From the NCBI GenBank assembly GCA_963813075.1, contig CAWEXU010000030.1:224001-288000 (forward strand): DNA of 64,000 nt, written 5' to 3'. A program made the position numbers and the translations under genes. The stretch is from Methanotrichaceae archaeon (GTDB taxonomy: Archaea > Halobacteriota > Methanosarcinia > Methanotrichales > Methanotrichaceae). This document shows, piece after piece, positions 59,577 to 64,000 of the stretch (its first letter is position 1; each line of letters begins with the position of its first letter). Below the pieces are notes generated by a model. The model searched no databases and had not been told where the DNA came from. It saw only the letters and a list, made by a program, of their open reading frames with translations.

Positions 59577-60482
59577 TCAGCCTTGCTCATCCAGGACTTT
59601 GCCGATTGCCTCTGCCGCTCTCTGGCCCTGGTCGTCCAGGGCAATGAGATCGATCTTCCTCGCCTGGTCCACCCCGATCCCCAGGCTCGCCGCCCGGGCG
59701 ATCTGCTCCTGCTCGAAGATCCGGCCTCTCATCACCTCAGGAGTTGTGCCATAGAGCCGCAGCAATGCCACTCCCACCGCATCAATGGCCACTCGATCCC
59801 TGGACGCCAGGAGTAGCCCTGGTTTGATCGATGTGCCCTGGTCCGGGCCACCGCGGGAGAATCCCTCTGCCGCATCCATCAGGATCAGGTCGGTGGGGTA
59901 GAAGTGGTTGATCTCTGCGATCATGAGCCTCTGGTAGGGGGAGGAATGCAATTCACGCATATAGTCATAGGTGGTGCCTTTTATCCGGGAGGCTATCATC
60001 CCCACTGAATTCTTCAGGGACATAGTGAAGTGTCCGCCGAACCTGTGGGTCTTCAGGCAACAGGTTTGAACCACCCGGTCCGCCTCGGTGAAGGTCCGGG
60101 CTATCTTGAAGCCCTGCCGCCAGTGCAGGTCCTCTGCCTGGATATCCTGCCAGTCTTCTGGGCGGGCAAAGTCCAGGTTCAAAAGCTTGAAGCCCAGTTT
60201 TCTGGAGAGATCCAGAACCCCGCGATTCTCAAGGACGGCAGTGGTGTTGCCCATGCCGCTCCGCTCGGCCATGACAAGGGTGCGAGCGCTCTTTATCAGG
60301 TGCTGGGCAATAGAATTCAGGGTCATGGGGTGAGTTGTTGCCGGGAATGGATCGTCGCTATTGTAGTTGGCCTTCAAGGCCACAGTGCCATCTGTGTGCA
60401 ACTCAAACTCAGCCAGGAGCTTCTTGACTCCTGCAATTCTATCTGATGCATCTGCCAGGAAGACATGAGAATGATCGTTCAT
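59577..60482 (-). CDS. DUF362 protein
   Basis: LK.N; TTHP; LKTH.F...TMSLKN; D.VAIDAV. Confidence 0.85.
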   Translation of the reverse strand: MNDHSHVFLADASDRIAGVKKLLAEFELHTDGTVALKANYNSDDPFPATTHPMTLNSIAQHLIKSARTLVMAERSGMGNTTAVLENRGVLDLSRKLGFKLLNLDFARPEDWQDIQAEDLHWRQGFKIARTFTEADRVVQTCCLKTHRFGGHFTMSLKNSVGMIASRIKGTTYDYMRELHSSPYQRLMIAEINHFYPTDLILMDAAEGFSRGGPDQGTSIKPGLLLASRDRVAIDAVGVALLRLYGTTPEVMRGRIFEQEQIARAASLGIGVDQARKIDLIALDDQGQRAAEAIGKVLDEQG

Positions 60483-61732
60483 CTTCGTCGCATCGCAGAG
60501 ACCCCATCCTTTAGGGTGGGGAGGAGCGCGTGCTTGTCACCTCTCAATTTTTGAACCCAAAATATATACATTCTAACCACTTCCATATATAATGTGCTTA
60601 GGACGATAACATTCAAGCTTGAGGTGACTAACCAAGATCGCAAGGCTCTTCTCGATACGATGAGAGCTTACTGCGACGCATTCTCTATCTCTGCTAAATG
60701 GGGATATGAGAACCTGTCTTGGAACAGGGTAGATAATCACAATGCAACCTACAAGCTTGCTCGCCAAAGCGTTCCCAATCTCCCTTCTTCTCTGGTGCAA
60801 GGTGCCAGAGATTGTGCTTGTGAAGCACTCAAGGCAGTCAAATGCAAAACGCTTCCACAACGGAAATCGTTCTCGGCAATGAGATACAATCAGAGAGTAA
60901 TTACAGTCAACATTGTGCATGGCATAGCTACAATTGCCAGTACCAACGGAAGAATCAAGGCAACTTTCTATACACCATCGCATTATAGGGAATATCTCAG
61001 CTGGATTATCAAGTCCTCTACGATTTCTTATGACCGGAGACGCAAAGTGTTCTATCTGCACATATCCCTGGAGCACAGCGATCCTGCAAAGGTTGCCAAT
61101 CTCGAAGTTCTTGGAATAGATCGTGGGATAGTGAATATTGCAGTCTGCTCGGATAACAGGTTTTTCAACTCTAAGAAGATCAAAAACAGGCGCGCTCGTT
61201 ATGCTTATCTTTGCAAAGAGTTGCAGTCCAAAGGCACCCAATCGGCCAGGCAAAAGCTGAAGCTTTTGTCTGGTAGGGAAAGACGGTTTGTGACTGATGT
61301 CAACCACTGCATATCCAAGCAAATTGTGAACTCGGAATATACTGTATTTGCTTTTGAGGATTTGAGCAAGATCCGAGTTCAGAAGCGAAGGGGCAAAGAG
61401 TTCAACCGCAAGCTCAATAACTGGTCTTTCTACCAACTTGAGCAGTTTGTCGGTTATAAGGCGGAAGCTCTTGGAAAGCACGTTCTGCTTGTGGATGCAA
61501 GATACACTTCTCAGAAGTGCTCTAATTGCGGGCATACTTATAAAGGGAACCGCGAAGGTTCCGCTTTCCGTTGTCGTAAATGTGGCTTTGAACTTCATGC
61601 CGACCTCAACGCTTCTCGAAATATAGCTCAGGCAGGTATATCTTGCCTGAGTAGGCTGCATAGTCAACCAGCCAAATGTGACACAACATTATCGTAGTCA
61701 CAAGCCGCGTCCTTTAGGGCGCTGTAGTTGAC
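60483..61732 (+). mobile_element. IS200/IS605-family element, TnpB-only (IS1341-like, non-autonomous)
   Basis: Subterminal hairpins CCCCATCC-TTTA-GGGTGGGG (60502-60521) and GCGTCC-TTTA-GGGCGC (61707-61722). Ends inferred from guide/cleavage pairing (GAGA predicts TCAT; CAAG predicts TGAC). No tnpA. Confidence 0.88.
60594..61697 (+). CDS. tnpB: RNA-guided endonuclease TnpB
   Basis: RuvC motifs LGIDRG, FEDL and ADLNASRNI intact; CSNCG/CRKCG zinc finger; TSQKC. Confidence 0.96.
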   Translation: MLRTITFKLEVTNQDRKALLDTMRAYCDAFSISAKWGYENLSWNRVDNHNATYKLARQSVPNLPSSLVQGARDCACEALKAVKCKTLPQRKSFSAMRYNQRVITVNIVHGIATIASTNGRIKATFYTPSHYREYLSWIIKSSTISYDRRRKVFYLHISLEHSDPAKVANLEVLGIDRGIVNIAVCSDNRFFNSKKIKNRRARYAYLCKELQSKGTQSARQKLKLLSGRERRFVTDVNHCISKQIVNSEYTVFAFEDLSKIRVQKRRGKEFNRKLNNWSFYQLEQFVGYKAEALGKHVLLVDARYTSQKCSNCGHTYKGNREGSAFRCRKCGFELHADLNASRNIAQAGISCLSRLHSQPAKCDTTLS

Positions 61733-61752
61733 AGTATATCATTATATATTGA
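61600..61752 (+). ncRNA. Predicted TnpB omegaRNA/reRNA scaffold plus guide (5' end approximate)
   Basis: Overlaps the tnpB 3' end and right end; GTCAAC (61663-61668) complements terminal GTTGAC (pseudoknot); guide would start at 61733. Confidence 0.65.
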
Positions 61753-61781
61753 TTGAAGCTCATTATATATTGATTGAAGCT
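61740..61781. repeat. Perfect 21-bp tandem duplication CATTATATATTGATTGAAGCT
   Basis: 61740-61760 is identical to 61761-61781. Confidence 0.95.
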
Positions 61782-61873
61782 GCCCGCTTAAATATGCAGC
61801 ACTATATCCAACTCTTGACCCGAGTCTCTGCTGGAATCCATAGGCAGCATCTTGCCGCATTTTGTAGTTGATA

Positions 61874-62032
61874 TCAATTGTATGGCTTAGACTTACTGGA
61901 CTGGCATGAAGGACATACTCTGATCACGCCGAATGCTTTGAAGATATGCCCGCAATCTGAGCACTTGTAGTCTCTGGCAAACATCCCCTCTGCCTCTCCG
62001 GCGTCTATTCCGCACCCGCAAATTGCGCACAT
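61874..62032 (-). CDS. 52-aa CxxCGC plus zinc-ribbon protein (below the ORF-track cutoff)
   Basis: MCAICGCGIDAGEAEGMFARDYKCSDCGHIFKAFGVIRVCPSCQSSKSKPYN; GAAGTGA RBS-like site; 32 nt after the azlD stop. Confidence 0.8.
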   Translation of the reverse strand: MCAICGCGIDAGEAEGMFARDYKCSDCGHIFKAFGVIRVCPSCQSSKSKPYN

Positions 62033-62064
62033 AATTAATCACTTCATTATGGCTCTTTTTCGCC

Positions 62065-62388
62065 TTAAAGATTTGCCAGCCAGAAGAGGGCCATTCCCAC
62101 GATGACAGTCCCCCCTAAGGATCTGGTCTTGAGGGCAAAGAGGAAGGTAGGGACGGCCACAATCGACTTGGGCTGGAGGATCTCCAGCTGGCGGGGGCTG
62201 CCGCTCACAAATAGGTCTGAGAAGACCAGGGCGCTCAAGATAGCCACCGGTATCAGATCCAGCCACTCGATGAACCATTCCGGCAGCTTCCGCTGGGTGA
62301 AGAGGAACAACGGAAACCAGCGGGGAATATAGGTTACCAGACCCATCCCCAATATCAAGAGGAGATACTGGTATTCAGCCTCAAGCAT
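62065..62388 (-). CDS. azlD: AzlD-family exporter small subunit
   Basis: GM.LVTY.PR..P; WL..IP.AIL.AL; overlaps azlC. Confidence 0.88.
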   Translation of the reverse strand: MLEAEYQYLLLILGMGLVTYIPRWFPLFLFTQRKLPEWFIEWLDLIPVAILSALVFSDLFVSGSPRQLEILQPKSIVAVPTFLFALKTRSLGGTVIVGMALFWLANL

Positions 62389-63195: not shown

Positions 63196-64000
63196 TTATA
63201 CCTCACAATTCACAGCGATAAAGACCTCTTGCTTCAGGTCCAATCGTTTGGGCAAGATGAAAGGCACACCCTCTTTTACGACAAAACGTGTGTCTTTTCG
63301 GGGGACGCAATTGCCGGCCCAGGCTTTAATTTTGAGAGCATCGTAGTCAGGATCGAGGTCAAGATTAACTTGGATGCTACTGTCCGTCAGAGTGATGAAT
63401 GCATCTCCCACATCGGTACCCTTGCGGGTATCGCAGCGAATTGCGCCTGTCCAAATATCTCCTGAGAAATCATAAGCCTCACCAGGGGCCATGATTCCAT
63501 GAGGGATATCCAGGTACCAGCCCCAGCCTCCTTCTGGCCCGGGGAAGCACACGGCATTGCCGCCTGGCAACATCCAGGCAGTCTTGCGCTCTTTGCATTC
63601 CACCTCAGTCCAGTAGCCTTCACCGTTGCAGAGGCAATCATTAGCGTCGGTGCAGTTGACAGTGTAAGTGCTGCCCGCTTTTCTAGTTATAACCGGTATA
63701 TTAGAGCATACATTGGTTAGGTCTACGTGCTCCAGGATCTGGTCGTCTGTTGGCACTTTACCTTTGCAGACCGAGAACTGTTCAGTCTCGATGATGCACA
63801 CAGGGTACTCGGACCAGGAACCGGAACCGGTGCAGAGGCAACCGTTCGCATCGGTGCAGGCGACAGTGTAAGTGTTTCCCGCTTTTCTAGTTATAACCGG
63901 TGTATCTGCGCATACATTAGGAAGGTCTACGTGCTCCAGGATCTGGACGTCTGTTGGCACCACACCTTTGCAGACAGAGAACGGCTCGGTTTCGATGATG
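63196..64000 (-). CDS. C-terminal part of a Cys-rich tandem-repeat (probably surface) protein; 5' end outside the window
   Basis: Frame open to the window edge; 68-aa repeats. Confidence 0.8.
   Translation of the reverse strand, partial: IIETEPFSVCKGVVPTDVQILEHVDLPNVCADTPVITRKAGNTYTVACTDANGCLCTGSGSWSEYPVCIIETEQFSVCKGKVPTDDQILEHVDLTNVCSNIPVITRKAGSTYTVNCTDANDCLCNGEGYWTEVECKERKTAWMLPGGNAVCFPGPEGGWGWYLDIPHGIMAPGEAYDFSGDIWTGAIRCDTRKGTDVGDAFITLTDSSIQVNLDLDPDYDALKIKAWAGNCVPRKDTRFVVKEGVPFILPKRLDLKQEVFIAVNCEV
63600..64000. repeat. 204-bp intragenic tandem repeat (about two units visible)
   Basis: TCCAGGATCTGG at 63731 and 63935; TCGATGATG at 63788 and 63992. Confidence 0.9.

Follow-up and report, generated by a model that had tools for sequence, protein, structure and literature searches.

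A TnpB element at the start codon of a methanogen DUF362 gene keeps a stop-free antisense frame that may carry translation into the gene

What becomes of a gene when a transposable element settles directly before its start codon? The question is raised by a 64,000-nucleotide (nt) stretch of the genome of a Methanotrichaceae archaeon (contig CAWEXU010000030.1, positions 224,001 to 288,000; hereafter the window), in which an insertion sequence (IS) of the IS200/IS605 family with tnpB as its only gene (60483–61732, plus strand, 1250 bp) starts directly before the ATG of a DUF362 gene (PF04015; 59577–60482, minus strand). An earlier note on this DNA had answered that the element displaces the promoter of the gene, could offer a TATA-like sequence of its left end in its place and lives by swapping promoters. 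We arrive at a different answer, to which we give a probability of roughly two in three: judging from related sequences, the reading frame antisense to tnpB would be a translational-coupling bridge that makes insertions at start codons mild.

The boundaries of the element are set by its relatives. In alignments with copies from other genomes of the genus, homology begins at TTCAT (60478–60482, plus strand), which lies outside the element, and ends with the right cleavage motif TGAC (ending at 61732, plus strand); the 13 full copies measure 1234–1251 bp. TTCAT is the reverse complement of ATGAA, the first bases of the DUF362 open reading frame (ORF), and its minus strand holds the ATG of that gene together with a TGA (60481–60479). 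Among 51 distinct family flanks, collected by pattern scans that did not contain the target motif, the left flank reads TTCAT in 47, TTCAA in two and GTTAT in one, and one further flank is a false pattern match. Within the 111-nt left end, the guide tetramer GAGA (60498–60501, plus strand) adjoins a subterminal hairpin (60502–60521, plus strand) that follows TCAT by 19 nt, and near the right end the guide CAAG (61701–61704, plus strand) precedes a second hairpin (61705–61724, plus strand). Terminal inverted repeats are absent. The left hairpin is more stable than its shuffles (z −2.4); the right one alone scores only −0.8, yet shows two-sided changes. The sense strand has a single long ORF, tnpB, with no tnpA between the ends, and a TnpA search across the family loci gave no match in any of them.

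The pairing details of the IS608 guide-tetramer rule, on which the earlier note had relied, let CAAG predict TGAC and GAGA predict TCxT. The rule fits the studied copy, 35 of the 47 TTCAT copies and both TTCAA copies (guide GAGT), but in the other 12 TTCAT copies the guide tetramer is CAGA, CAGC, AAGA or CGGC, which would pair with another target. By every testable feature except this partly failing rule, the element belongs to the IS1341 group. All coordinates given in the earlier note hold on re-check, including the right end at TGAC and the left end placed after TTCAT. Its description of the element as intact is borne out by the 367-amino-acid (aa) ORF with its catalytic residues and is less sure for the ends, since three changes in the left end and one mismatch in the right hairpin (61723) are private to this copy.

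Contigs of six RNA runs share 0.11–0.16 of the sequence words, but contigs reveal neither strand nor transcript starts. Contigs of four sequencing runs were compared with the locus, and run X1 yielded an empty allele. Its junction, 60482-AGTATA-61760, is the predicted one, without target duplication, and it confirms both the left end after TTCAT and the proposal that the 20-nt predicted guide (61733–61752, plus strand) is native leader formerly lying just upstream of the DUF362 ATG. The insertion thus lies exactly at the ATG and leaves the 301-aa ORF intact; an ortholog with 80% identity (L022) begins at the same Met.

Two questions follow. First, what does the strand facing the DUF362 gene contain? 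Second, can it lead ribosomes to that gene? As for the first, the minus strand of the element carries an ORF of 341 codons (60573–61598) in the frame that mirrors tnpB, in which a stop can arise only from in-frame TTA, CTA or TCA in tnpB. In 33 non-redundant relatives (53–100% aa identity, GC content 36–50%), 33 antisense stops occur in 11,724 codons, compared with about 355 expected from the relatives' own third-position A use; 23 of the 33 have none and 27 have at most one. Four outgroup TnpBs have 37 such stops with 35 expected, eight outgroup sequences, from families partly shared with these four, have 2–13 each, and 8–11 each occur in the same genome's TTTAT- and TTCAA-flanked families. 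Among 467 host genes of comparable length, only 11 have a mirror frame without stops. The avoidance is specific to this frame, since the two remaining antisense frames hold 15–28 stops. Four-fold sites are 28–43% identical to those of distant members and therefore near saturation, a divergence through which the open frame has been kept. Between distant members its product shares only 27–34% identity, below that of TnpB itself, and it found no Pfam match and no usable match in Atlas, where its recognition score was low, a result that shows neither novelty nor reality. Because the antisense sequence is poorly conserved while the frame stays open, selection would seem to act on openness and not on a protein.

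The start of the frame is conserved as well. A Shine-Dalgarno (SD)-like GAGGT and an ATG (61596–61608, minus strand) arise from the tnpB codons for HADLN, with His335 as CAT and Asp337 as GAC. His335 is CAT in 30 of 31 sequences (62% for other His, p = 6e-6) and Asp337 is GAC in 24 of 31 (27% for other Asp, p = 7e-9), both counts coming from kin that are not independent; the Ala and Asn codons beside them vary. An antisense stop that is common at tnpB codon 366 lies upstream of this start and is tolerated.

As for the second question, a relay ORF of 30 codons (60479–60571, minus strand) starts 1 nt after the stop of the long antisense ORF and terminates on the TGA of a 4-nt overlap with the DUF362 start. 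Of 24 distinct close left ends, 19 link the antisense frame to the target TGA, and nine of 20 other relatives do so as well (seven of them unbroken); among shuffled left ends the figure is 8.7%. The stop-start links within left ends span 0, +1 or −4 nt, and left ends of 98 nt and 110 nt differ in length by a multiple of three. Among the close copies, all 11 at start codons besides the studied one are linked, versus eight of 13 others (p = 0.03). According to passages of PMC6728339, translational coupling at such overlaps and across 1 nt has been demonstrated in Haloferax, and PMC10666635 states that coupling requires very short gaps and fails beyond about 20 nt, a limit that fits the exact phasing of the antisense frame.

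We therefore propose a scheme for a clade of non-autonomous IS1341-type TnpB elements in Methanosarcinia-like methanogens, which insert 3′ of TTCAT. Because TTCAT mirrors ATG-AA, some insertions come to lie in reverse orientation between a gene and the signals ahead of it, and the clade seems adapted to this position. Host transcription would come in through the right end, the promoter being kept and not swapped. About 135 nt inside, the SD-like motif and ATG within the HADLN codons would start a filler ORF antisense to tnpB, which would terminate, directly or after one stop and restart, on the TGA of the target's ATGA. Ribosomes would resume on the host gene by termination-reinitiation and keep the crossing RNA covered, and this cover may, we infer, shield it from termination by aCPSF1/FttA, a factor described in passages of PMC8116511. 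TnpB would cut empty alleles at TTCAT plus the guide, by analogy with passages on the ISGst elements (10.1101/2023.03.14.532601), and a tnpA located elsewhere would mobilise the element. Somewhat less firmly, we incline to the wider view that the clade has made the start-codon-mirroring target a niche: with a ribosome-binding site and start hidden in the reverse of active-site codons, a kilobase of filler frame, the host TGA as stop and coupling to the gene it landed before, the element would be nearly invisible without splicing, while TnpB guards the site.

How often does the family land at start codons? Our own simple gene caller (2761 genes, 76% coding) places 371 (4.8%) of the 7806 host TTCAT sites at starts, 66% within genes and 29% between them, and probably over-counts the intergenic ones. 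Among 45 other close-family sites, judged by hand, eight are firm start-codon landings, six more are probable and six lie in genes; a landing was called firm where a Pfam domain or homolog begins at residue 1 or a stop lies directly upstream, and the studied copy, L053 (5-nt flank), L059 (GTTAT), L099 (false match) and L121/L123 (TTCAA) were excluded from the count. The excess over all host TTCAT sites is clear (p 1e-3 to 1e-8). Seven of the 20 further relatives land at start codons with a Pfam match and two more probably do, leaving out L142, L144 and L146, which were counted already, and L152, which has no TTCAT boundary, lies at a contig end and holds eight antisense stops. The genes behind these landings include Trm1, a MiaB-like enzyme, Mrp, a peptidase M24 (a probable methionine aminopeptidase), PyrI and FeoB. 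The motif together with purging of in-gene insertions accounts for much of this pattern. Start-codon sites are nevertheless no less tolerated than intergenic ones, also when the gene behind them is of housekeeping type, which calls for an explanation.

Several observations weigh against coupling through the antisense frame. The excess of starts over non-coding sites, which qualifies the clear excess above, is modest and depends on the null: with 14%, p runs from 0.17 (8/39) to 7e-4 (14/40), and with 22%, our own estimate to allow for the over-counted intergenic sites, from 0.65 to 0.04. Under the one-restart rule, five of the 24 close left ends and 11 of the 20 other relatives have a broken link, two start-codon landings (L150, L153) among them. 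The left boundaries of those 20 were chosen visually from the TCAT candidates, a choice that may favour linkage. The SD-like motif is detected in only 22 of 31 sequences. In L095, located before the MiaB-like gene, tnpB codon 34 produces an antisense stop, and L137, L142, L143 and L152 have 3–11 antisense stops. Depletion of antisense U runs is not specific to the clade, as sense A runs of five or more number 42 against 77 expected in the clade and 20 against 26 in the outgroup, with T runs likewise depleted. The relatives are not independent, so the p values overstate the evidence. The read-through RNA would be antisense to tnpB and to its omegaRNA. Finally, close orthologs of the DUF362 gene occur in only five of 58 other genomes of the genus, and the gene may be dispensable.

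Part of this evidence could also be read as the mark of an ordinary element, whose landings reflect the motif and purging alone, whose DUF362 host gene is perhaps weakened, and whose open frame is an antisense protein, a relic or the product of some other cause. Purging is indeed strong, with in-gene landings at 6/45 where 66% of host TTCAT sites lie in genes; the firm starts taken alone (8/39) are not significantly above the 14% of non-coding sites (p = 0.17); and a minority of the close copies lack an intact bridge, as do about half of the distant ones. A relic, however, would not outlast near-saturated synonymous change, a protein would hardly be conserved less than the TnpB it mirrors and match neither Pfam nor Atlas, and the stop of the frame coincides with the TGA of the target far more frequently than in shuffled left ends. 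We consider this explanation unlikely.

The promoter swap of the earlier note is about as improbable in our judgement. It holds that a left-end TATA box pointing outward takes over from a displaced host promoter. To complete such a reading, an ATG at 60571 or a looped-out SD motif would have to supply ribosomes. We scored the left ends with a B recognition element (BRE)-TATA matrix trained on 941 host upstream regions, which peaks 38 nt before start codons and yields matrix scores, not a map of transcription starts. The BRE-TATA-like box of the studied copy (60556–60571, plus strand) faces tnpB and lies 38 nt before its GTG. Across the family the box scores higher toward tnpB in 22 of 24 copies (mean 9.7 inward versus 3.4 outward), mostly at −38 from the GTG. 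Inward-facing and at the modal position of the host, it is probably a leaderless-type promoter of tnpB itself. The studied copy is an outlier with a nearly symmetric box (7.3 inward, 6.5 outward), its outward score exceeds the host median of 5.8, and it might retain weak outward promoter activity. The family as a whole argues otherwise, since reversed host upstream regions have a higher median (4.5) than its mean outward score and start-codon copies score no higher outward (about 3.2) than the others (about 3.7; averaged by hand).

Was there a promoter to displace? With 1.4, below the host median, the native DUF362 leader does not register as a promoter; for the stretch ahead of the upstream 52-aa gene the score is 5.8. 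Furthermore, a short-leader allele in which 60482 is joined to 61870, without the element and about 110 nt of DUF362 leader, is present in three of the four runs (X1, X2, X9). The low score and this allele suggest that the gene is probably transcribed from upstream same-strand genes, so that its promoter was not displaced by the insertion, and the element appears to restore translation rather than transcription. The promoter swap also leaves the 340-codon open frame upstream of the box without explanation. On its side stand the persistence of start-codon landings and an AGGTG that 23 of 27 left ends carry on their minus strand, ahead of a stable hairpin. In the studied copy the AGGTG lies in a perfect 7-nt SD-like motif, GAGGTGA (60543–60537, minus strand), 54 nt before the DUF362 ATG, and the hairpin 3′ of it could loop out. 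A scan for bacterial sigma-70 promoters, the wrong type for this host, gave three sites where 2.8 are expected by chance. A divergent tnpA remnant as origin of outward signals was rejected, TnpA being absent from every family locus.

Least probable, although compatible with coupling and partly contained in it, is protection against polarity alone, by which a translated antisense frame would shield read-through RNA from aCPSF1/FttA termination wherever the element opposes transcription, with the hand-over at ATGA secondary: Archaea do possess an RNA-binding, factor-dependent termination (passages of PMC8116511) and the open tnpB frame (27/33 with at most one stop) is more widely kept than the left-end link (28/44), but in seven distant relatives the frame reaches exactly the target TGA without a break, and the lengths of the 98-nt and 110-nt left ends are a multiple of three apart.

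TnpB (60594–61697, plus strand) has 367 aa, a GTG start, the RuvC residues D176/E255/D337 and a zinc finger with both Cys pairs intact, and matches NF040570 with 184 bits (cut-off 100). Its best solved relatives, 8j1j, 7wju and 8dzj, which we take to be Cas12f-like, align with the C-terminal half only (E about 1e-24). Type V-F Cas12f was considered and set aside, with 137 bits to NF049972 against a cut-off of 450 and the gene sitting between IS ends; no dedicated search for a CRISPR array was made. A predicted omegaRNA scaffold (61626–61732, plus strand) overlies the 3′ end of tnpB and folds into four helices, with two-sided change in 11 of 33 pairs among 15 sequences; GTCAAC (61663–61668) is complementary to the terminal GTTGAC. 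Such a covarying right-end fold is as expected of an omegaRNA. TTCAT is predicted to be the target-adjacent motif (TAM) of the nuclease, by analogy with characterised IS200/IS605 elements, whose TAM equals the left-flank motif (passages of 10.1101/2023.03.14.532601). A second site in genome G000 with TTCAT and at least seven matching seed bases was not found, and a check for off-target self-cleavage gave one weak site only. An Rfam scan of 60300–62100 returned three weak matches, all under the gathering score and none an intron.

Further elements with ties to the family were noticed. Seven PF01797 matches are present in the same genome; one of them (312559–312912) belongs to a tnpA-only IS200-like element (L130, G000:C4:312442-313091), both flanks of which carry the left-end hairpin of the studied element, and by this likeness its tnpA is a candidate transposase acting in trans. 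An orphan 111-nt right end, 98% identical, lies at G000:C19:2628-2738, fused to what presumably is an IS3-type transposase fragment, judging by a motif. L061, L056, L073, L096, L113 and L125 are internally deleted or end-fused derivatives with the studied left end, L061 being a 400-bp element that keeps both ends. A sister family (G000:C13:111764, C31:61855, C4:56549; L017, L019, L121, L123) has a similar left end with guide GAGT and target TTCAA; its tnpB is 29–35% identical and its antisense frame is not open, which makes it a natural control. The insertions of L084, L095, L160 and L163 split operon stop/start overlaps, and in L084 and L095 the upstream gene acquires a short tail that stops inside the right hairpin.

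The host side of the right junction bears traces of its own. A perfect 21-nt tandem duplication of host leader (61739–61759 and 61760–61780, plus strand) begins 7 nt beyond the right end; the X1 empty allele has one copy, together with three indels, and an X1 contig crossing the right junction has both. With only 1 nt of junction homology, the duplication may have arisen with the insertion or as a repair scar. The short-leader allele breaks right after TTCAT, with CATAG at both ends in the window sequence. It may have arisen by a deletion at microhomology that took away the TnpB target, making it an escape allele, or it may reflect no more than strain variation. Upstream on the same strand, the next gene is a Cys-rich small ORF of 52 aa (61874–62032, minus strand), which follows azlC-azlD, is syntenic in L022 and is the likely source of the read-through transcription into DUF362. 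In genome G030 the DUF362 ortholog (L030 region, G030:C44:18467-19370) is split into two frames near residue 249. At 63196–64000, an ORF running past the end of the window contains tandem Cys-rich repeats of about 55 aa and probably encodes a surface protein.

If coupling through the antisense frame is correct, it would explain the pile-up of TTCAT-targeting elements at housekeeping start codons, and it would be an uncommon natural example of a long antisense frame retained solely for its openness. Recoding such tnpB genes, or dismissing their antisense ORFs as spurious, would lose information. The bridge is cheaply testable, since synonymous changes in tnpB can place antisense stops without altering the nuclease. 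As a tool, a 367-aa TnpB with a predicted TTCAT TAM would be an ordinary addition.

How does this element compare with known systems? Some IS elements carry outward promoters that activate neighbouring genes; like them, the present element would keep or change the expression of its neighbour by signals in its ends, but its conserved box faces inward. In the literature covered, no paper was found that describes TnpB elements as targeting start codons or as keeping an antisense frame. Screens of TnpB TAMs have reportedly been published elsewhere, and these or supplements may list the studied clade or its TAM. In passages of PMC10691335 the terms "antisense" and "start codon" are absent. The closest characterised relatives are the Geobacillus elements ISGst2 (TnpB, TTTAT) and ISGst5 (IscB, TTCAT), which, in passages of 10.1101/2023.03.14.532601, share with ours the subterminal hairpins, insertion 3′ of a fixed motif without target duplication, the scarless empty site, a guide-tetramer pairing, which in our family fits part of the copies, and a right-end omegaRNA and a TAM equal to the left-flank motif, both predicted in ours. 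TTCAT was already known as the TAM of the IscB of ISGst5; those passages mention neither landing at start codons nor an antisense frame, the term "start codon" appearing once with a different meaning, and here the nuclease is a methanogen TnpB. The sense overlapping transcripts (sotRNAs) of haloarchaeal IS1341 elements (PMC4615843) likewise are structured RNAs at the tnpB 3′ end and right end; they are sense RNAs, and the passages of that paper do not describe an antisense reading frame.

Two further systems bear on the proposed mechanism. The termination-reinitiation coupling at ATGA and TGATG overlaps (passages of PMC6728339 and PMC10666635) is the same arrangement as that in which our antisense frame ends on the TGA of the host ATGA; it is known for native gene pairs, whereas here the upstream partner would be the filler frame of a transposon. 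IStrons, which combine a group I intron with an IS605 or IS607 element (PMC4227781), are also IS605-type elements with a built-in means of harmless insertion. The present element has no such intron, given its left end of only 111 nt and the lack of an Rfam match at gathering level, and its proposed rescue is translation across the element instead of splicing. If this holds, it would represent a third route to low-cost occupancy of essential sites, beside the RNA splicing of IStrons and the protein splicing of inteins.

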